35,893 nucleotides of DNA from Eledone cirrhosa (Eukaryota): positions 1 to 35,893 of the forward strand of contig CAXHJY010000498.1 of NCBI GenBank assembly GCA_964016885.1. Reading direction: 5' to 3'. The position numbers and the translations under genes were made by a program. How positions within the stretch are numbered: position 1 is the first letter of the stretch; each line of letters begins with the position of its first letter. Below the pieces are notes generated by a model, which was not told the DNA's origin, made no database searches, and saw only the letters and a list, made by a program, of their open reading frames with translations. Positions 18,881 through 35,893 of this stretch are shown piece after piece.

Positions 18881-21800
18881 ATATGAATATAGACATAGAA
18901 TATTCGAAAATATTCTGTATGTTTATAATAAACATTTTGAAGACCTAATCGCTATAGAATAGAATACGTCACGTATTACAATTAGATTCTCGATAAAAGC
19001 AAGGGAAGTAATCTACGCGTTTCATTCTTGTTAGAATTCATCAGGACTACATATCCAGTGCTTTTATCGAGAATGACACAGCTAGAGACTTATAGAATAC
19101 TTAGCTGTGTACAGGAACTGGTTTGAAAGAGCGGTTGCCGGTCCGGCAGAAATTAGAAATTGGAATAAATGCTCTGAAATAGCGATATATATATGAATAT
19201 AGACATAGAATATTCGAAAATATTCTGTATGTTTATAATAAACATTTTGAAGACCTAATCGCTATAGAATAGAATACGTCACGTATTACAATTAGATTCT
19301 CGATAAAAGCAAGGGAAGTAATCTACGCGTTTCATTCTTGTTAGAATTCATCAGGACTACATATCCAGTGCTTTTATCGAGAATGACACAGCTAGAGACT
19401 TATAGAATACTTAGCTGTGTACAGGAACTGGTTTGAAAGAGCGGTTGCCGGTCCGGCAGAAATTAGAAATTGGAATAAATGCTCTGAAATAGCGATATAT
19501 ATATGAATATAGACATAGAATATTCGAAAATATTCTGTATGTTTATAATAAACATTTTGAAGACCTAATCGCTATAGAATAGAATACGTCACGTATTACA
19601 ATTAGATTCTCGATAAAAGCAAGGGAAGTAATCTACGCGTTTCATTCTTGTTAGAATTCATCAGGACTACATATCCAGTGCTTTTATCGAGAATGACACA
19701 GCTAGAGACTTATAGAATACTTAGCTGTGTACAGGAACTGGTTTGAAAGAGCGGTTGCCGGTCCGGCAGAAATTAGAAATTGGAATAAATGCTCTGAAAT
19801 AGCGATATATATATGAATATAGACATAGAATATTCGAAAATATTCTGTATGTTTATAATAAACATTTTGAAGACCTAATCGCTATAGAATAGAATACGTC
19901 ACGTATTACAATTAGATTCTCGATAAAAGCAAGGGAAGTAATCTACGCGTTTCATTCTTGTTAGAATTCATCAGGACTACATATCCAGTGCTTTTATCGA
20001 GAATGACACAGCTAGAGACTTATAGAATACTTAGCTGTGTACAGGAACTGGTTTGAAAGAGCGGTTGCCGGTCCGGCAGAAATTAGAAATTGGAATAAAT
20101 GCTCTGAAATAGCGATATATATATGAATATAGACATAGAATATTCGAAAATATTCTGTATGTTTATAATAAACATTTTGAAGACCTAATCGCTATAGAAT
20201 AGAATACGTCACGTATTACAATTAGATTCTCGATAAAAGCAAGGGAAGTAATCTACGCGTTTCATTCTTGTTAGAATTCATCAGGACTACATATCCAGTG
20301 CTTTTATCGAGAATGACACAGCTAGAGACTTATAGAATACTTAGCTGTGTACAGGAACTGGTTTGAAAGAGCGGTTGCCGGTCCGGCAGAAATTAGAAAT
20401 TGGAATAAATGCTCTGAAATAGCGATATATATATGAATATAGACATAGAATATTCGAAAATATTCTGTATGTTTATAATAAACATTTTGAAGACCTAATC
20501 GCTATAGAATAGAATACGTCACGTATTACAATTAGATTCTCGATAAAAGCAAGGGAAGTAATCTACGCGTTTCATTCTTGTTAGAATTCATCAGGACTAC
20601 ATATCCAGTGCTTTTATCGAGAATGACACAGCTAGAGACTTATAGAATACTTAGCTGTGTACAGGAACTGGTTTGAAAGAGCGGTTGCCGGTCCGGCAGA
20701 AATTAGAAATTGGAATAAATGCTCTGAAATAGCGATATATATATGAATATAGACATAGAATATTCGAAAATATTCTGTATGTTTATAATAAACATTTTGA
20801 AGACCTAATCGCTATAGAATAGAATACGTCACGTATTACAATTAGATTCTCGATAAAAGCAAGGGAAGTAATCTACGCGTTTCATTCTTGTTAGAATTCA
20901 TCAGGACTACATATCCAGTGCTTTTATCGAGAATGACACAGCTAGAGACTTATAGAATACTTAGCTGTGTACAGGAACTGGTTTGAAAGAGCGGTTGCCG
21001 GTCCGGCAGAAATTAGAAATTGGAATAAATGCTCTGAAATAGCGATATATATATGAATATAGACATAGAATATTCGAAAATATTCTGTATGTTTATAATA
21101 AACATTTTGAAGACCTAATCGCTATAGAATAGAATACGTCACGTATTACAATTAGATTCTCGATAAAAGCAAGGGAAGTAATCTACGCGTTTCATTCTTG
21201 TTAGAATTCATCAGGACTACATATCCAGTGCTTTTATCGAGAATGACACAGCTAGAGACTTATAGAATACTTAGCTGTGTACAGGAACTGGTTTGAAAGA
21301 GCGGTTGCCGGTCCGGCAGAAATTAGAAATTGGAATAAATGCTCTGAAATAGCGATATATATATGAATATAGACATAGAATATTCGAAAATATTCTGTAT
21401 GTTTATAATAAACATTTTGAAGACCTAATCGCTATAGAATAGAATACGTCACGTATTACAATTAGATTCTCGATAAAAGCAAGGGAAGTAATCTACGCGT
21501 TTCATTCTTGTTAGAATTCATCAGGACTACATATCCAGTGCTTTTATCGAGAATGACACAGCTAGAGACTTATAGAATACTTAGCTGTGTACAGGAACTG
21601 GTTTGAAAGAGCGGTTGCCGGTCCGGCAGAAATTAGAAATTGGAATAAATGCTCTGAAATAGCGATATATATATGAATATAGACATAGAATATTCGAAAA
21701 TATTCTGTATGTTTATAATAAACATTTTGAAGACCTAATCGCTATAGAATAGAATACGTCACGTATTACAATTAGATTCTCGATAAAAGCAAGGGAAGTA

Positions 21801-24800
21801 ATCTACGCGTTTCATTCTTGTTAGAATTCATCAGGACTACATATCCAGTGCTTTTATCGAGAATGACACAGCTAGAGACTTATAGAATACTTAGCTGTGT
21901 ACAGGAACTGGTTTGAAAGAGCGGTTGCCGGTCCGGCAGAAATTAGAAATTGGAATAAATGCTCTGAAATAGCGATATATATATGAATATAGACATAGAA
22001 TATTCGAAAATATTCTGTATGTTTATAATAAACATTTTGAAGACCTAATCGCTATAGAATAGAATACGTCACGTATTACAATTAGATTCTCGATAAAAGC
22101 AAGGGAAGTAATCTACGCGTTTCATTCTTGTTAGAATTCATCAGGACTACATATCCAGTGCTTTTATCGAGAATGACACAGCTAGAGACTTATAGAATAC
22201 TTAGCTGTGTACAGGAACTGGTTTGAAAGAGCGGTTGCCGGTCCGGCAGAAATTAGAAATTGGAATAAATGCTCTGAAATAGCGATATATATATGAATAT
22301 AGACATAGAATATTCGAAAATATTCTGTATGTTTATAATAAACATTTTGAAGACCTAATCGCTATAGAATAGAATACGTCACGTATTACAATTAGATTCT
22401 CGATAAAAGCAAGGGAAGTAATCTACGCGTTTCATTCTTGTTAGAATTCATCAGGACTACATATCCAGTGCTTTTATCGAGAATGACACAGCTAGAGACT
22501 TATAGAATACTTAGCTGTGTACAGGAACTGGTTTGAAAGAGCGGTTGCCGGTCCGGCAGAAATTAGAAATTGGAATAAATGCTCTGAAATAGCGATATAT
22601 ATATGAATATAGACATAGAATATTCGAAAATATTCTGTATGTTTATAATAAACATTTTGAAGACCTAATCGCTATAGAATAGAATACGTCACGTATTACA
22701 ATTAGATTCTCGATAAAAGCAAGGGAAGTAATCTACGCGTTTCATTCTTGTTAGAATTCATCAGGACTACATATCCAGTGCTTTTATCGAGAATGACACA
22801 GCTAGAGACTTATAGAATACTTAGCTGTGTACAGGAACTGGTTTGAAAGAGCGGTTGCCGGTCCGGCAGAAATTAGAAATTGGAATAAATGCTCTGAAAT
22901 AGCGATATATATATGAATATAGACATAGAATATTCGAAAATATTCTGTATGTTTATAATAAACATTTTGAAGACCTAATCGCTATAGAATAGAATACGTC
23001 ACGTATTACAATTAGATTCTCGATAAAAGCAAGGGAAGTAATCTACGCGTTTCATTCTTGTTAGAATTCATCAGGACTACATATCCAGTGCTTTTATCGA
23101 GAATGACACAGCTAGAGACTTATAGAATACTTAGCTGTGTACAGGAACTGGTTTGAAAGAGCGGTTGCCGGTCCGGCAGAAATTAGAAATTGGAATAAAT
23201 GCTCTGAAATAGCGATATATATATGAATATAGACATAGAATATTCGAAAATATTCTGTATGTTTATAATAAACATTTTGAAGACCTAATCGCTATAGAAT
23301 AGAATACGTCACGTATTACAATTAGATTCTCGATAAAAGCAAGGGAAGTAATCTACGCGTTTCATTCTTGTTAGAATTCATCAGGACTACATATCCAGTG
23401 CTTTTATCGAGAATGACACAGCTAGAGACTTATAGAATACTTAGCTGTGTACAGGAACTGGTTTGAAAGAGCGGTTGCCGGTCCGGCAGAAATTAGAAAT
23501 TGGAATAAATGCTCTGAAATAGCGATATATATATGAATATAGACATAGAATATTCGAAAATATTCTGTATGTTTATAATAAACATTTTGAAGACCTAATC
23601 GCTATAGAATAGAATACGTCACGTATTACAATTAGATTCTCGATAAAAGCAAGGGAAGTAATCTACGCGTTTCATTCTTGTTAGAATTCATCAGGACTAC
23701 ATATCCAGTGCTTTTATCGAGAATGACACAGCTAGAGACTTATAGAATACTTAGCTGTGTACAGGAACTGGTTTGAAAGAGCGGTTGCCGGTCCGGCAGA
23801 AATTAGAAATTGGAATAAATGCTCTGAAATAGCGATATATATATGAATATAGACATAGAATATTCGAAAATATTCTGTATGTTTATAATAAACATTTTGA
23901 AGACCTAATCGCTATAGAATAGAATACGTCACGTATTACAATTAGATTCTCGATAAAAGCAAGGGAAGTAATCTACGCGTTTCATTCTTGTTAGAATTCA
24001 TCAGGACTACATATCCAGTGCTTTTATCGAGAATGACACAGCTAGAGACTTATAGAATACTTAGCTGTGTACAGGAACTGGTTTGAAAGAGCGGTTGCCG
24101 GTCCGGCAGAAATTAGAAATTGGAATAAATGCTCTGAAATAGCGATATATATATGAATATAGACATAGAATATTCGAAAATATTCTGTATGTTTATAATA
24201 AACATTTTGAAGACCTAATCGCTATAGAATAGAATACGTCACGTATTACAATTAGATTCTCGATAAAAGCAAGGGAAGTAATCTACGCGTTTCATTCTTG
24301 TTAGAATTCATCAGGACTACATATCCAGTGCTTTTATCGAGAATGACACAGCTAGAGACTTATAGAATACTTAGCTGTGTACAGGAACTGGTTTGAAAGA
24401 GCGGTTGCCGGTCCGGCAGAAATTAGAAATTGGAATAAATGCTCTGAAATAGCGATATATATATGAATATAGACATAGAATATTCGAAAATATTCTGTAT
24501 GTTTATAATAAACATTTTGAAGACCTAATCGCTATAGAATAGAATACGTCACGTATTACAATTAGATTCTCGATAAAAGCAAGGGAAGTAATCTACGCGT
24601 TTCATTCTTGTTAGAATTCATCAGGACTACATATCCAGTGCTTTTATCGAGAATGACACAGCTAGAGACTTATAGAATACTTAGCTGTGTACAGGAACTG
24701 GTTTGAAAGAGCGGTTGCCGGTCCGGCAGAAATTAGAAATTGGAATAAATGCTCTGAAATAGCGATATATATATGAATATAGACATAGAATATTCGAAAA

Positions 24801-25423
24801 TATTCTGTATGTTTATAATAAACATTTTGAAGACCTAATCGCTATAGAATAGAATACGTCACGTATTACAATTAGATTCTCGATAAAAGCAAGGGAAGTA
24901 ATCTACGCGTTTCATTCTTGTTAGAATTCATCAGGACTACATATCCAGTGCTTTTATCGAGAATGACACAGCTAGAGACTTATAGAATACTTAGCTGTGT
25001 ACAGGAACTGGTTTGAAAGAGCGGTTGCCGGTCCGGCAGAAATTAGAAATTGGAATAAATGCTCTGAAATAGCGATATATATATGAATATAGACATAGAA
25101 TATTCGAAAATATTCTGTATGTTTATAATAAACATTTTGAAGACCTAATCGCTATAGAATAGAATACGTCACGTATTACAATTAGATTCTCGATAAAAGC
25201 AAGGGAAGTAATCTACGCGTTTCATTCTTGTTAGAATTCATCAGGACTACATATCCAGTGCTTTTATCGAGAATAACACAGCTAGAGACTTATAGAATAC
25301 TTAGCTGTGTACAGGAACTGGTTTGAAAGAGCGGTTGCCGGTCCGGCAGAAATTAGAAATTGGAATAAATGCTCTGAAATAGCGATATATATATGAATAT
25401 AGACATAGAATATTCGAAAATAT
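18881..25423 (-). mobile_element. Tandem array of 310-bp hammerhead-containing units (non-LTR retrozyme-like), left arm: 21 full units plus 33 bp, ribozyme on the minus strand
   Basis: ATATGAATATAGACATAG recurs every 310 bp from 18881 to 25391; the only difference I saw is G>A at 25275. Confidence 0.9.
18986..19074 (-). ncRNA. Type-I hammerhead ribozyme (first of 21 minus-strand copies, period 310)
   Basis: Reverse complement of the motif described at 25554-25642. Confidence 0.9.
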
Positions 25424-28400
25424 GTCTATATTCATATATATATCGCTATTTCAGAGCATTTATTCCAATTTCTAATTTCTGCCGGACCGGCAACCGCTCT
25501 TTCAAACCAGTTCCTGTACACAGCTAAGTATTCTATAAGTCTCTAGCTGTGTCATTCTCGATAAAAGCACTGGATATGTAGTCCTGATGAATTCTAACAA
25601 GAATGAAACGCGTAGATTACTTCCCTTGCTTTTATCGAGAATCTAATTGTAATACGTGACGTATTCTATTCTATAGCGATTAGGTCTTCAAAATGTTTAT
25701 TATAAACATACAGAATATTTTCGAATATTCTATGTCTATATTCATATATATATCGCTATTTCAGAGCATTTATTCCAATTTCTAATTTCTGCCGGACCGG
25801 CAACCGCTCTTTCAAACCAGTTCCTGTACACAGCTAAGTATTCTATAAGTCTCTAGCTGTGTCATTCTCGATAAAAGCACTGGATATGTAGTCCTGATGA
25901 ATTCTAACAAGAATGAAACGCGTAGATTACTTCCCTTGCTTTTATCGAGAATCTAATTGTAATACGTGACGTATTCTATTCTATAGCGATTAGGTCTTCA
26001 AAATGTTTATTATAAACATACAGAATATTTTCGAATATTCTATGTCTATATTCATATATATATCGCTATTTCAGAGCATTTATTCCAATTTCTAATTTCT
26101 GCCGGACCGGCAACCGCTCTTTCAAACCAGTTCCTGTACACAGCTAAGTATTCTATAAGTCTCTAGCTGTGTCATTCTCGATAAAAGCACTGGATATGTA
26201 GTCCTGATGAATTCTAACAAGAATGAAACGCGTAGATTACTTCCCTTGCTTTTATCGAGAATCTAATTGTAATACGTGACGTATTCTATTCTATAGCGAT
26301 TAGGTCTTCAAAATGTTTATTATAAACATACAGAATATTTTCGAATATTCTATGTCTATATTCATATATATATCGCTATTTCAGAGCATTTATTCCAATT
26401 TCTAATTTCTGCCGGACCGGCAACCGCTCTTTCAAACCAGTTCCTGTACACAGCTAAGTATTCTATAAGTCTCTAGCTGTGTCATTCTCGATAAAAGCAC
26501 TGGATATGTAGTCCTGATGAATTCTAACAAGAATGAAACGCGTAGATTACTTCCCTTGCTTTTATCGAGAATCTAATTGTAATACGTGACGTATTCTATT
26601 CTATAGCGATTAGGTCTTCAAAATGTTTATTATAAACATACAGAATATTTTCGAATATTCTATGTCTATATTCATATATATATCGCTATTTCAGAGCATT
26701 TATTCCAATTTCTAATTTCTGCCGGACCGGCAACCGCTCTTTCAAACCAGTTCCTGTACACAGCTAAGTATTCTATAAGTCTCTAGCTGTGTCATTCTCG
26801 ATAAAAGCACTGGATATGTAGTCCTGATGAATTCTAACAAGAATGAAACGCGTAGATTACTTCCCTTGCTTTTATCGAGAATCTAATTGTAATACGTGAC
26901 GTATTCTATTCTATAGCGATTAGGTCTTCAAAATGTTTATTATAAACATACAGAATATTTTCGAATATTCTATGTCTATATTCATATATATATCGCTATT
27001 TCAGAGCATTTATTCCAATTTCTAATTTCTGCCGGACCGGCAACCGCTCTTTCAAACCAGTTCCTGTACACAGCTAAGTATTCTATAAGTCTCTAGCTGT
27101 GTCATTCTCGATAAAAGCACTGGATATGTAGTCCTGATGAATTCTAACAAGAATGAAACGCGTAGATTACTTCCCTTGCTTTTATCGAGAATCTAATTGT
27201 AATACGTGACGTATTCTATTCTATAGCGATTAGGTCTTCAAAATGTTTATTATAAACATACAGAATATTTTCGAATATTCTATGTCTATATTCATATATA
27301 TATCGCTATTTCAGAGCATTTATTCCAATTTCTAATTTCTGCCGGACCGGCAACCGCTCTTTCAAACCAGTTCCTGTACACAGCTAAGTATTCTATAAGT
27401 CTCTAGCTGTGTCATTCTCGATAAAAGCACTGGATATGTAGTCCTGATGAATTCTAACAAGAATGAAACGCGTAGATTACTTCCCTTGCTTTTATCGAGA
27501 ATCTAATTGTAATACGTGACGTATTCTATTCTATAGCGATTAGGTCTTCAAAATGTTTATTATAAACATACAGAATATTTTCGAATATTCTATGTCTATA
27601 TTCATATATATATCGCTATTTCAGAGCATTTATTCCAATTTCTAATTTCTGCCGGACCGGCAACCGCTCTTTCAAACCAGTTCCTGTACACAGCTAAGTA
27701 TTCTATAAGTCTCTAGCTGTGTCATTCTCGATAAAAGCACTGGATATGTAGTCCTGATGAATTCTAACAAGAATGAAACGCGTAGATTACTTCCCTTGCT
27801 TTTATCGAGAATCTAATTGTAATACGTGACGTATTCTATTCTATAGCGATTAGGTCTTCAAAATGTTTATTATAAACATACAGAATATTTTCGAATATTC
27901 TATGTCTATATTCATATATATATCGCTATTTCAGAGCATTTATTCCAATTTCTAATTTCTGCCGGACCGGCAACCGCTCTTTCAAACCAGTTCCTGTACA
28001 CAGCTAAGTATTCTATAAGTCTCTAGCTGTGTCATTCTCGATAAAAGCACTGGATATGTAGTCCTGATGAATTCTAACAAGAATGAAACGCGTAGATTAC
28101 TTCCCTTGCTTTTATCGAGAATCTAATTGTAATACGTGACGTATTCTATTCTATAGCGATTAGGTCTTCAAAATGTTTATTATAAACATACAGAATATTT
28201 TCGAATATTCTATGTCTATATTCATATATATATCGCTATTTCAGAGCATTTATTCCAATTTCTAATTTCTGCCGGACCGGCAACCGCTCTTTCAAACCAG
28301 TTCCTGTACACAGCTAAGTATTCTATAAGTCTCTAGCTGTGTCATTCTCGATAAAAGCACTGGATATGTAGTCCTGATGAATTCTAACAAGAATGAAACG

Positions 28401-29809
28401 CGTAGATTACTTCCCTTGCTTTTATCGAGAATCTAATTGTAATACGTGACGTATTCTATTCTATAGCGATTAGGTCTTCAAAATGTTTATTATAAACATA
28501 CAGAATATTTTCGAATATTCTATGTCTATATTCATATATATATCGCTATTTCAGAGCATTTATTCCAATTTCTAATTTCTGCCGGACCGGCAACCGCTCT
28601 TTCAAACCAGTTCCTGTACACAGCTAAGTATTCTATAAGTCTCTAGCTGTGTCATTCTCGATAAAAGCACTGGATATGTAGTCCTGATGAATTCTAACAA
28701 GAATGAAACGCGTAGATTACTTCCCTTGCTTTTATCGAGAATCTAATTGTAATACGTGACGTATTCTATTCTATAGCGATTAGGTCTTCAAAATGTTTAT
28801 TATAAACATACAGAATATTTTCGAATATTCTATGTCTATATTCATATATATATCGCTATTTCAGAGCATTTATTCCAATTTCTAATTTCTGCCGGACCGG
28901 CAACCGCTCTTTCAAACCAGTTCCTGTACACAGCTAAGTATTCTATAAGTCTCTAGCTGTGTCATTCTCGATAAAAGCACTGGATATGTAGTCCTGATGA
29001 ATTCTAACAAGAATGAAACGCGTAGATTACTTCCCTTGCTTTTATCGAGAATCTAATTGTAATACGTGACGTATTCTATTCTATAGCGATTAGGTCTTCA
29101 AAATGTTTATTATAAACATACAGAATATTTTCGAATATTCTATGTCTATATTCATATATATATCGCTATTTCAGAGCATTTATTCCAATTTCTAATTTCT
29201 GCCGGACCGGCAACCGCTCTTTCAAACCAGTTCCTGTACACAGCTAAGTATTCTATAAGTCTCTAGCTGTGTCATTCTCGATAAAAGCACTGGATATGTA
29301 GTCCTGATGAATTCTAACAAGAATGAAACGCGTAGATTACTTCCCTTGCTTTTATCGAGAATCTAATTGTAATACGTGACGTATTCTATTCTATAGCGAT
29401 TAGGTCTTCAAAATGTTTATTATAAACATACAGAATATTTTCGAATATTCTATGTCTATATTCATATATATATCGCTATTTCAGAGCATTTATTCCAATT
29501 TCTAATTTCTGCCGGACCGGCAACCGCTCTTTCAAACCAGTTCCTGTACACAGCTAAGTATTCTATAAGTCTCTAGCTGTGTCATTCTCGATAAAAGCAC
29601 TGGATATGTAGTCCTGATGAATTCTAACAAGAATGAAACGCGTAGATTACTTCCCTTGCTTTTATCGAGAATCTAATTGTAATACGTGACGTATTCTATT
29701 CTATAGCGATTAGGTCTTCAAAATGTTTATTATAAACATACAGAATATTTTCGAATATTCTATGTCTATATTCATATATATATCGCTATTTCAGAGCATT
29801 TATTCCAAT
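25421..29809 (+). mobile_element. Same 310-bp retrozyme-like array, inverted right arm: 14 full units plus 49 bp, ribozyme on the plus strand
   Basis: TATGTCTATATTCAT recurs every 310 bp from 25421 to 29761; ends ...TATTCCAAT then (TA)n. Confidence 0.9.
25554..25642 (+). ncRNA. Type-I hammerhead ribozyme (first of 14 plus-strand copies, period 310)
   Basis: ATTCTCGATAAAAGCA ctggatat GTAGTC CTGATGA ATTCT aaca AGAAT GAAA CGCG TA GATTAC ttccct TGCTTTTATCGAGAAT: perfect core, stem III palindrome ACGCGT, 16-bp distal stem I; predicted GUA cleavage after A25614. Confidence 0.92.
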
Positions 29810-30386
<577 letters not shown>

Positions 30387-30423
30387 CAATATTAAATAAA
30401 TGGAAAACTATATTTATAAAACC

Positions 30424-30500
30424 ATATTTATTTCATTATATATATTTCGGGGATATCATATTAACAATATGCTATGCCTTCATCAGACAAAATACAATAT
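30424..30500 (-). ncRNA. Putative type-I hammerhead in PLE-B inverted pLTR
   Basis: Reverse complement: AUAUU-g-UAUUUUGU-CUGAUGA-aGGcAUAgCAUAUU(guu)AAUAUGaUAUccCC-GAAA-UAUAUA-UA-AUGAAAUA-AAUAU; stem III is the palindrome AUAUAUAU. Confidence 0.65.
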
Positions 30501-31216
30501 AAACAGTTTTATAGACAAATAGGTTCGACATACCGTTATAACACCGACTTCATTTGAAGAGGTTTACTCTGGCTGTGAACAAATTTTACACAGAGAGAAA
30601 GAAAAAGAGAGAAAACAGAAAGAAAGACAGAAAACGAAGAAAAGGAAGAAAAAGAAGAGAAAGAGGAAATGCATGGAACAAAATAGAGAGATGGAAAGAT
30701 AGATAAAGCGAAGAACTTCATGTAAAGAAACAGAAAGAGATATATATATATAGAGAGAGAGAGGAAATAGATAGATATATATATATATATAGAAAATTAG
30801 GTAGTGGGAGGTCATTTTGAGTAAATGTATCAATGATACGTTTATTTATTTATTTATTTATTTAGCTCAAGTATTAATGTAAGGGAGATATATATAGAGA
30901 GAAAAAAAAATATAGGGAGAGGAGAGGAAAACAATAGAGAGAGGAAAAAATAGCGAGAGAAAAAAATTTAAAATAGCCAGATATATTCGAGGCGTAAAAA
31001 TCCTATGTTTTAATGTATTAATATTTATAAAACTTACACTATATTGTAAAATCAGTATTCCTGAATGAGACAAGTATCTATAATGTGTGAAATATTACTA
31101 CATTTTCGTCTGTATTAGATTTATCAAAGTGGAATGCACGCCACCTGATTCTCCTTATAAAAGAGTCAGATTTATCTATTAATTGTTTTATAAAGTCTTT
31201 GTTTCTAGGTAGAGGT

Positions 31217-33421
31217 ATGTCTTTTAGAGAGGAAGTAATCTTAAAGAATTCCATTTTTCCAGTTATAATATGAAGCGCTCAACAGTATTGGAGCAAGATA
31301 CATGGAAAGTTATATTTAAAATTGTTGGGTTACAACTAGATAAATCTAATACAGACGAAAATGTCTCGGACTTAAACAAAGTTTTCAAATCTAAAAGAAA
31401 TCCACCCCCTAACAAACTTTTATCTGACTTTGAAAACGATATAATTTCTATCATACAAGGGGTCAAATTCAAGAGAAATTTTAAAGGCCAGGAATATCTG
31501 AAAGGCATTAAGGATAAAATTGAGAGCTTAGAGAAAACTGAGAAGATCTTGGTGAAATCTGACAAGACCAACAACCTCTATGGAGTGCGGAAAGACATGT
31601 ATAATGGCCTCATACTGAAAGAGCTGAGGAAAAAGTACAAGGTAGCAGATAAGGCCGAACTTGAGAAAATGAATGTCGAAGCATCTTGTATAATGCACTA
31701 GTTGGAAATTGAGAACAGAACACAACCTTTCGTGCCCAGGAAACCGAAGATCAATATGAAGGACCACAAGAGGAATTTTGAAAATGACCTGTCAGTTAGA
31801 TTGATCGCACCTTCAAAATCGGACCTGGGCAAATTAAGCAAAAACATTCTTGACAGGGTGATACAGCAAATTAAGAACTTGGATTGTGTATCTAACCTGA
31901 GCTTGTGGAAGGGAACTGGAGAGGTTGTGGAGTGGTTTAGGCAAATTAAATATAACAATAATAATAGGTTTATTCAACTTGATATAGCTAACTATTATTC
32001 TTCTATTACCCCTAGTCTACTAAATAAGGCACTAAATTACGCATTCAAACATACCGCCCTAACTAGCAAAGAAATGCATATTATATTATCGGCTAGGAAA
32101 ACTTTGATAGAATTTAATGACAAATTATGGACCAGAGCAGATAGAGACAGCAATTTTGACATAACTATGGGATCTTCCGACTCAGCTCAGGTAACTGACC
32201 TTGTGGGCTTATTTTAATCAATTCGCTACATAGGAAAATACCTGGTACTACCGGAGGTTTATATAGGGATGACATGCTTTTACTTATTAATAATAATAAC
32301 CCTGAACTAAATAGAAAATGTAAACAAATTACAAAATTTTTTAATTACTTTAACCTTAAAATAGAAATTGAGAACAACCATAGAATAGTCAATTTCCTAG
32401 ATATAACGTTAAATCTCAACACATGTCTCCACTATCCTTTTCACAAGTTGAATGAAAACTTAAACTATGTCAACTTTAACTCTAACCACCCCAGATCTGT
32501 CAAAAACACCATAGTAAACTCAGTTCAAAAACGTATCTCTAGGATCTCGTCGAATAGATTGATTTTCGACGAAAAGGCCCAATACTATAATGAAGCACTA
32601 GCTCGGGCAGGATATGCTGATAAGATTGTGTACATAGATAATGATAGACAAACTAAACAAAGTAACAACTTTTTTAATTACGGCAACAACATTAACAACT
32701 ATAATAGAAAGCATTACAATAATTCCAAAGGACAAAAAAGAAATAGAACTAGGAACATAATTTGGTTTGCCGCCCCTTTCTCACTAAACATTAGAACCCA
32801 CATCGCTAAATTATTTTTCAAAGCTCTTGATAATCGCTTCCCTAGAACACATAGGTATCACTCAATTTTCAATAGGCATACAATTAAATTAACCTACTCA
32901 TCCACTAAAAATTTAGCACAAAATATTAATAGAATAAATAATAGGAACTTAAAACCTACTGATAATAGCATAAATAATATACAAGTTAACAAATGTAACT
33001 GTAGAGATAGATCTAAATGTCCGTTAAATAACAACTGCTTAGTTAAAAATATAGTATACAATTGTAATGTTAATACTGACTCTAATTCTTTTAACTACGT
33101 CGGTTCCACATCGACGGAATTTAAACTTCGCTATAATAACCACAAGAATTCTTTCACAGATCCAAATAAAAATCTTCAACGGCACTATCAGGCGTACTCT
33201 GGCAACTTAAGCTAGATAACGTTAGATATTCGACGGCTTGGAATATAGTCTCAAGAGGGATTCCTTTTAATTCATCCTCTGAGACATGTGACCTCTGCGC
33301 AGAGGAGATATTCTTTATACTAAAATCTAAAAATTCCCTTAACCTACGGACAAATTTATTCAGTTGTTGCAAACATAGATTAAACTCAACGTTTAAATAT
33401 AAATTTAAATTTAAAATGTAG
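31217..33421 (+). pseudogene. Disrupted PLE RT-GIY-YIG ORF (Naiad-like)
   Basis: KSDKTNNLY, KDHKRNF, RLIAPSKSDLGKLSK, DIANYYSSI, FDITMGSSDSAQVTDLVG, GLYRDD, NFLDITLNL, SNHP, CNCRDRSKCPLNNNC linker, NIVY...YVGST...FKLRYNNH and C-terminal CDLC...CCKH. TAG at 31699, TAA/frameshift at ~32215, frameshift at ~33170. The start position is uncertain. Confidence 0.88.
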
Positions 33422-33810
33422 TATATTTAGTTTGATTTATATTTATATTTATATTTATATGGGAAACTAGCCGATAAATTTTTGATTGCTAAATCTTTGA
33501 TTCCTTCTTTTTACTCTCTTTTTATTGTTTATTTTTATTTTATTTTATTTTTATCTAAACATTCCTCATGAAAAATTAAGCTACCCTAAAAGCTGATGCT
33601 CCAAATTTTTGAATAAACCTTACACTAGATAAACTTCTATATTAAATATAAGAACATATATAGACCTAATTGGACATCATAATCTTTTTGAAATGATCTT
33701 TGCTAGATGTGATTTGATGGATAATTTTTGGCTTTGTCTTGTAAAGAACTTGGCAATATATTGTCAATTAACTTTGAAGGGTTGATCTTTGTGGTGTATT
33801 TTTATTTTTA

Positions 33811-33841
<31 letters not shown>

Positions 33842-34666
33842 TTTATTTTTATTATTGTAGTATTCTATAATATTTTCTATAATATTTTTTATTTTTATTG
33901 TATTTTTAATATCTTTAATATGTAAATTTTTAATACGTAATATTTTTAATACGTAGTATGCTTAATATATAATATTTTTATTATGTAATATTCTTTCGTA
34001 ATATTTTTATTTTTTTATTTTTTAGTGTTCTATTCTATATTTTTATTTATTATTATTATTGTTATCTTTTTATTTTTAGTTTTGTTTAAGATATATATTT
34101 TTATTAGTATATTGAAATCTGCTCTCTACTTCTGCTTGATAGATAATCTGGTAGAGTAATGACATGAATAATAATACACATATTTGTATGCTCAAATTTT
34201 TATACCACATTGAGAACGTTTTCCGTGAACTTAGAGTTTTGCAGAGTGAATCAGTTAGATTCGCATGGATGTTTGTAGCTGTCACATAAACATATGAATT
34301 TTTTTTAAAACTAAACATAAGATAATTAATTTTCACACATTATAGATACTTGTCTCATTCAGGAATACTGATTTTACAAAATAGTGTAAGTTTTATAAAT
34401 ATTAATACATTAAAACATAGGATTTTTACGCCTCGAATATATCTGGCTATTTTTAAATTTTTTTCTCTCGCTATTTTTTCCTCTCTCTATTGTTTTCCTC
34501 TCCTCTCCCTATATTTTTTTCTCTCTATATATATATCTCCCTTACATTAATACTTGAGCTAAATAAATAAATAAATAAATAAACGTATCATTGATACATT
34601 TACTCAAAATGACCTCCCACTACCTAATTTTCTATATATATATATATATATATATGTATCTATTTC

Positions 34667-35893
<1,227 letters not shown>

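Follow-up and report, generated by a model that had tools for sequence, protein, structure and literature searches.

Head-to-head arrays of a hammerhead-bearing 310-bp unit in Eledone cirrhosa: a retrozyme probably copied from both DNA ends by a Penelope-like enzyme

The array of the window and its 310-bp unit

We analysed one stretch of Eledone cirrhosa DNA (GenBank assembly GCA_964016885.1, contig CAXHJY010000498.1, positions 1 to 35,893), which is an entire contig of 35.9 kb and is referred to below as the window. Its central part is a long array of a 310-bp unit, each copy of which carries a predicted type-I hammerhead ribozyme. According to Tandem Repeats Finder the period of 310 bp holds across 18875-29809, in two arrays of opposite orientation (18875-25431 and 25421-29809). 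The left arm (arm S, 18875..25423, RNA sense on the minus strand) contains 21.13 tandem units with 21 hammerheads, and the right arm (arm T, 25421..29809, RNA sense on the plus strand) contains 14.16 units with 14 hammerheads; the arms abut 5'-to-5' and face outward into (TA)n target tracts at 18225..18874 and 29810..30386. We number the unit from the predicted cut (25615 = position 1). Arm S then has its 5' end at unit position 101 and its 3' end at 139, where an (AT)5 inside the unit merges with the flank, and arm T runs from 117 to 165, with a one-sided tail of 26 nt (unit positions 140-165; 29784..29809, plus strand) found at the T end only. The head-to-head joint (25421..25423) shows a 3-nt microhomology, TAT, inside a GAAUAUU-UUCG-AAUAUUC hairpin. 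Among the 35 whole units 34 are identical, and the remaining one has the sole substitution of the array, a G>A on the plus strand at 25275 that has no mirror in the other arm. The array is a very young insertion, one of many copies of its family, and with 35.3 units in total it is the second largest among 97 resolved pairs of arms (see below). The original prediction, made from the sequence alone, had described a single tandem multimer of 35 copies: the period, the 35 hammerheads and the near identity of the units stand, and what it had missed is that the array is an inverted pair.

No open reading frame (ORF) of at least 80 aa was found inside the array, so the unit has no coding capacity and lacks the ORF with reverse transcriptase (RT) and GIY-YIG domains by which an autonomous Penelope-like element (PLE) is recognised. 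By inspection and folding, each unit contains the hammerhead GUAGUC-CUGAUGA-AUUC(UAACAA)GAAU-GAAA-CGCG-UA/GAUUAC, the slash marking the predicted cleavage (after A25614 in the example at 25578..25620, plus strand). The core is intact; helix I (GUAGUC/GAUUAC) has 6 bp and is prolonged by a long stem, helix II has 4 bp, and helix III is weak, being a palindrome (ACGCGU) with one or two base pairs within. Since helix III is weak, cleavage is predicted to need a dimer; short palindromic helices of this sort are described as typical for metazoan type-I motifs, in which a dimer is required for cleavage (PMC4209133). The fold of the hammerhead region beats 200 of 200 shuffles (z -5.14), and that of the monomer 100 of 100 (z -4.73). 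The hammerhead claimed for every unit is thereby borne out, as are the six hairpin pairs named with it, all of which are exact reverse complements (6/6), although the AUAGCGAU/AUCGCUAU pairing competes with an alternative pairing in the minimum-energy fold. A search with the Rfam hammerhead models, the check proposed at the time, gave a mixed answer: no match to the array at gathering score, and a sub-threshold match to Hammerhead_HH9 (23 bits vs 52 gathering, E 0.0033). The stretch between two successive cut sites (unit positions 1-310; 25615..25924, plus strand) is one monomer, the predicted circular RNA.

Two fixed ends across the genome

Genome-wide counts were made by exact patterns in the 3.0-Gb genome, and all traced loci except the window lie on the chromosome-scale sequence C1. 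The genome contains at least 15,842 units (exact 30-mer matches, a lower bound), including 2,528 copies of the window's own hammerhead variant, with 995 array ends at position 165 and 1,160 at ~139, both running into (TA)n. The number of loci is estimated at ~1,700-1,750 from the overlap of the two end lists on C1, and at ~1,570 from the number of units divided by mean array size, so that we put it at some 1,600-1,750 overall. The family is dispersed, multicopy and without long terminal repeats (LTRs), the arms passing straight into the flanks (primer-binding-site and polypurine-tract motifs were not searched for). The reading of the unit as a retrozyme is supported; a lack of dispersed copies had been named among the findings that would speak against it, and such copies exist.

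We traced 108 loci. The tail end at 165 served to select 92 of them and an internal word 6; the remaining 10, among them the window, were selected by the hammerhead. In 98 of the 108 loci two arms are present with one end at 125-139 and the other at 154-170, and 2 further loci are two-armed with one end outside the retrieved DNA (100/108 two-armed in all). The proportions among the less biased picks are 9/10 (hammerhead) and 4/6 (internal word). Another 20 loci were picked by the short end and lack the exact tail pattern; 14 of them are two-armed with the far end at 166-172, so inversion is what the family normally shows and does not come from an error in the window's contig. The ends are thus fixed, one arm stopping at ~139 and the other at 165-172, which gives a tail of 26 to ~37 nt, depending on how the (AT) overlap is counted.

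Among the 97 resolved pairs the longer arm is of one type in 41 and of the other in 56; the two types have median lengths of 3.1 and 4.4 units, and the distribution of arm lengths is close to exponential (Kolmogorov-Smirnov p 0.059). The longest arms reach 45 units (L071/L097); in this 45-unit arm variants recur 27 units apart, a sign of later block duplication. The offset between the 5' ends of the two arms is uniform (Rayleigh p 0.54, 79 loci), and an early impression from 9 loci that the 5' ends are closely spaced, as after a local fold-back, was gone at 79 loci. Bases were added at the joint in 33 pairs; in the others the microhomology measures at least 2 nt (39 pairs) or 1 nt (16), or is absent (9). 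When only the first 79 loci are considered, it reaches 2 nt or more at 30 of the 52 joints that lack an insert, vs 18.6% expected. At L041 (4443-4620) the central joint is duplicated, nested within a single locus. As for the target, pure TA alternation of at least 8 nt lies on one side at 90 of 98 loci. Target duplications can be read only outside pure (TA)n, which leaves most sites, the window included, unreadable; where they can be read they measure 12 bp (L034) and 11-15 bp (L094), with L090 and L171 supportive and less clean. Because these duplications of 12-15 bp frame both arms, the two arms stem from a single event.

Sister retrozyme families, one copy of which lies at 11521-12032 of the window, share unit positions ~69-212 at ~75% identity. 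In a comparison of 6 sequences, two hairpins that lie directly 5' of the first fixed end have 3 base pairs in which both partners differ. The hairpin cluster concerned (unit positions 79-145; 25693..25759, plus strand) is a candidate RT-binding and start module, as this modest number of compensatory changes suggests. The sister families have units of ~316-333 nt, are two-armed and have a tail of ~35 nt (11521-12032 in the window; L073, L081-L088, L092, L094, L108 and L179), and two of them have the core UUGAUAA, the U3-A8 covariant of C3-G8 reported in PMC4209133. Further type-I hammerhead repeats, unrelated to these and tandem or inverted, were seen in the flanks of L079 and L104.

Template, enzyme and alternative explanations

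Our preferred reading, which we hold to be probable, is that the family is a non-LTR retrozyme whose RNA, in most cases a monomer circle, is reverse-transcribed by a PLE enzyme from the two ends of the cut DNA. PLE mobilisation, already proposed in the original prediction, is strongly supported because the layout (two fixed ends, a one-sided tail and target duplications) closely matches the published PLE footprint, from which we infer the enzyme. As the anatomy of the unit and published retrozymes suggest, sense RNA transcribed from the arrays would cut itself after GUA, probably in dimers formed by way of the ACGCGU palindrome, and ligation would turn the products into circles of 310 nt. The hairpin module at 79-145 would be recognised by a PLE protein, which would cleave (TA)n with a stagger; the preference for this target and the duplications are observed, the enzyme is presumed. 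Each free 3' DNA end would then prime cDNA synthesis, one near 139 and one at 165-172, the ends being observed and the priming suggested by PLE biochemistry. Each polymerase would circle the template a variable number of times (21 and 14 in the window), and the two cDNAs would be joined through microhomology or a few added bases, as seen at the joints. A minority of events appear to have used multimer templates, and a few long arrays to have grown later through DNA duplication.

Variation among the units bears on the template. Each locus is near-uniform, with 31 haplotypes among 74 loci; rare array-wide variants are found on both arms in 19 of 20 cases; and in the 108-locus set 34 distinct variants are fixed through whole loci, which favours a monomer bottleneck and hence a circle. 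Single-copy changes number 147 in ~1,064 units, and partly spread variants occur at only 8 of 108 loci. Nothing marks the cut site in the arrays: of 194 5' ends, 10 fall within 10 nt of it where 13 are expected, and of 147 single-copy changes, counted over 1,051 passes, 5 fall within 5 nt where 4.7 are expected. This tells against a template switch from one cleaved linear monomer to the next; what is left is a circle or a multimer that was not cut. In the catalytic core there are 0 array-wide changes vs 5 of 147 single-copy ones, too few to weigh.

Array-wide A>G changes are concentrated in predicted stems (unit positions 216, 218, 259, 260 and 276; L060, L074, L108, L116 and others) and have no C>T counterpart. 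They may reflect A-to-I edits that were copied into the genome. At confidently paired sites, array-wide substitutions keep pairing in 8 of 9 cases vs 14 of 52 single-copy changes (p 7e-4), in a test that uses the structure predicted from the window's unit and in which polarity is uncertain at some sites; 7 of the 8 pair-keeping changes are A>G, as editing would also yield. The retention of pairs could thus be due to a fold under selection or to editing, and either implies passage through folded RNA. These limits on the pairing test are among several points that weigh against the preferred reading. Eight of the 108 loci are single-armed, gap-cut or reduced to a stub, and 6 of the 20 short-end-picked loci are single or have a stub. 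At L067, L099 and L196 a variant is mirrored solely in the outermost unit or units of both arms, which is unexpected from a pure monomer circle; L060 has discordant arms; and repeated blocks at L052, L071/L097 and L096/L051 indicate that arrays can grow after insertion. Cleavage, circle and expression are predicted from the anatomy of the unit and from published retrozymes, and in the anole PLE study ribozyme cleavage was unnecessary and unprocessed RNA was the main substrate in vitro (PMC11167929).

The partner is a further such point. The PLE next to the array (30396-34690) has the RWR, DKT and CxCX5C motifs given for the Hydra clade (PMC8557442). The window's copy has a stop and frameshifts, and the right arm of this copy ends at an internal (AT)n. 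Its family (30396-34690 in the window; L150-L161) is young, with a 4,011-bp unit, tandem copies 99.9% alike and a hammerhead-like motif in the pseudo-LTR; elsewhere in the genome there are intact ORFs of 737 aa, one of which gave no Pfam match, and 1,456 exact 30-mer matches. In 8 of 10 pairs it shows a two-ended layout like that of the retrozyme. Its tail of ~87-95 nt differs from the 26-37 nt of the retrozyme, and BLAST between the two units returned only a 27-nt low-complexity match (E 5e-5), i.e. no real homology. We therefore rejected the idea that the unit derives from this PLE, there being no homologous pseudo-LTR and the tail length being different; likewise, the suggestion that neighbouring PLEs supply the enzymes in trans is not borne out for this adjacent family. 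A profile of three sister families, run against all loci retrieved by then, gave no PLE-linked match, and no PLE with a homologous end or a 26-37-nt tail was found by BLAST, profile and tail survey in the ~1.3 Mb of genome examined. Many other TA-flanked inverted elements in the tail-length survey have the two-ended layout with other tail lengths.

The nearest competitor keeps two-ended priming by a PLE and makes an uncut linear multimer transcript the usual template, with both primers on one unit and circles rare or incidental. We judge this unlikely, yet worth serious attention. It would account for the variants mirrored from the 3' ends at L067, L099 and L196, it fits traceless read-through of the cut site equally well, and it agrees with the slow cleavage that a weak helix III predicts, with the dominance of unprocessed RNA in the anole assay (PMC11167929) and with the cleavage in vitro of only 1 of 9 Xenopus retrozymes (bioRxiv 10.64898/2026.07.22.740005). 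What it has difficulty with is that, to give the fixed variants and the many haplotypes, arrays would have to pass again and again through a single monomer and then regrow to up to 18-24 units with hardly any other change (L036, L105, L110 and L116), and that 58 single-copy changes in the zone common to both arms have no mirror. The same two considerations, a helix III that predicts dimer-dependent cleavage and the low yield in Xenopus, make it doubtful that any read-through transcript would be cut into monomers, as the original prediction had held; nor does this follow from the layout, since a transcript from either flank would read antisense first and could then form a hairpin of up to 4.4 kb. 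Growth at the DNA level offers another route: a short PLE-type insertion would at first have comprised about one unit in each arm, and unequal exchange and gene conversion would later have lengthened it and made its units alike, leaving in essence a satellite that began by retroposition. The 3 long arrays with block duplications and the large size of the window's array point that way, and local amplification has been proposed in bioRxiv 10.64898/2026.07.22.740005; we nevertheless think it improbable, given that both arms are multimeric at most loci with few internal differences, that variants are so rarely caught partly spread, and that the near-exponential arm lengths are those expected from random polymerase stopping.

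The inversion itself might be a fold-back: a cDNA may have snapped back at the joint hairpin, or a small unplaced contig may contain a false palindrome that arose in a read or in assembly. The window alone could suggest this, with its joint inside a hairpin, 16 positions off symmetry, with its almost identical units, and being itself a whole contig of 35.9 kb. A fold-back copy, however, could neither exceed its template nor stop at a fixed site, whereas either arm can be the longer one and the ends are fixed. Moreover, neither flank mirrors the other, the arms differ in length, their outer ends lie at two different fixed positions, the joints vary among loci with a uniform offset, the chromosome-scale C1 shows the same layout, and target duplications frame both arms. 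This explanation is largely refuted and we hold it to be very improbable. Least credible of all is a viroid-like agent with replication at the RNA level and transfer from species to species. It was suggested by sequencing runs of other organisms: 20 of 24 listed runs (16 studies, 17 organisms) hold at least 66% of the unit's words, and no RNA run holding the unit is among those listed, which says nothing about expression. Three of these 20 runs were examined, together with an own-type run and a run of raw reads, and each of the three gave a single self-closing contig of 340 nt at depth 18-34. A tandem DNA array would assemble as a closed contig in the same way. Two of the three (X5 and X6) also hold the host's Hydra-type ORF in pieces at depth ~2-5, with the unit at 26-34, which is roughly the genomic copy ratio of 11:1, so trace DNA is the simplest reading; the third is too shallow to show the Hydra-type PLE either way, and raw reads of another sample of one listed organism (X23) contain no unit. 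We accordingly rejected horizontal spread across the 17 organisms as probably due to trace DNA, on the strength of the 3 holder runs and X23, and found no support for a viroid-like nature in the sense of RNA-to-RNA replication.

Returning to copying by a PLE enzyme on a monomer circle, we offer a wider proposal more tentatively. The arrays may be a direct genomic record of two-ended rolling-circle reverse transcription, in which a PLE dimer would cut (TA)n, both subunits would circle one ribozyme-made RNA, and A-to-I edits in stems would be written back; the same route might explain the tandem, inverted and tailed structure of PLEs themselves, e.g. the near-perfect 4,011-bp Hydra-type tandems. 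The entry of retrozymes into animal genomes has so far been a model only, the published case being co-occurrence and pseudo-LTR homology, and the origin of tandem and inverted PLE insertions is named as open in PMC8557442. With nucleotide-exact start sites, a 310-nt substrate and more than 1,000 independent events, the family makes both questions testable in vitro. It also accounts for ~0.16% of the genome (15,842 x 310 bp out of 3.0 Gb); most of this lies in long palindromes, from which hairpin RNA or DNA instability could arise.

Neighbouring elements and known systems

The remainder of the window contains other elements of related kinds. Two broken copies of a second PLE family (1-2646 and 16285-18225) have RT and GIY-YIG domains by Pfam below cut-off, a minimal hammerhead in the pseudo-LTR and a tail of ~60 nt. 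Another Hydra-like family, with 3' ends at 2958-3310 and 10348-11276, has a hammerhead with a long helix II and a palindromic AUGCGCAU helix III, and a tail of ~90-95 nt. A short fragment at 6888-7277, without a Pfam match, resembles a LINE RT region (GPDG motif).

In L1 twin priming two DNA ends prime on one RNA and the inversion is joined by microhomology; there the second primer has no constant position within the RNA, and poly(A) forms the 3' end. In the family described here, in contrast, both starts are fixed and both arms copy one repeated sequence. Viroids and viroid-like satellite RNAs resemble the 310-nt unit in size, strong fold and hammerhead. They differ in that the unit has a hammerhead in one polarity only, is present as thousands of genomic DNA copies with a retroposition footprint, and shows no sign of RNA-to-RNA replication.

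The retrozyme class is already known: animal non-LTR retrozymes have been defined in coral, mussel and axolotl as well as in Xenopus and others, and their mobilisation by PLEs via a circle has been proposed (Cervera and de la Pena 2020, PMC7229834; PMC7761336; bioRxiv 10.64898/2026.07.22.740005). Our family shares with them a non-coding tandem unit (150-450 bp in the published cases) of low GC, a type-I hammerhead per unit, arrays up to tens of units, a weak palindromic helix III as in axolotl HHR_Amex1, target duplications of more than 4 bp when present, and a PLE as proposed mobiliser. It differs in layout, the retrozymes in the text examined being direct tandems only and most of our loci head-to-head pairs with two fixed ends; expression in the form of circles was shown there, whereas here the circle is a prediction from sequence. 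Homology to a PLE pseudo-LTR, reported for 24 of 57 Xenopus families (vs Repbase) in bioRxiv 10.64898/2026.07.22.740005, was not found here. The two-armed layout is apparently undescribed for retrozymes: no description was found in the text examined, in titles and in the beginnings of abstracts (subscription journals and supplements fall outside this scope, and the model figure of PMC7229834 may bear on it), and the word 'inverted' occurs 0 times in the text of PMC7229834 and once, in a reference, in that of bioRxiv 10.64898/2026.07.22.740005.

The arrays closely resemble the insertions of PLEs, for which Craig et al. 2021 (PMC8557442) describe an inverted 5'-truncated copy, a tail of 30-40 bp at one end and microsatellite targets. 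The anole PLE protein, a predicted dimer, cleaves both strands and elongates each of them, copying the RNA from two start sites between which the tail lies (Frangieh et al. 2024, PMC11167929). The inverted 5'-truncated copy, the one-sided tail, the microsatellite or AT-rich target and the two RT start sites all have their counterparts in our arrays. What sets the arrays apart is that they carry no ORF and that both arms are multimers of a 310-nt unit, up to 45 copies, where PLEs form partial tandems of a 3-4-kb element.

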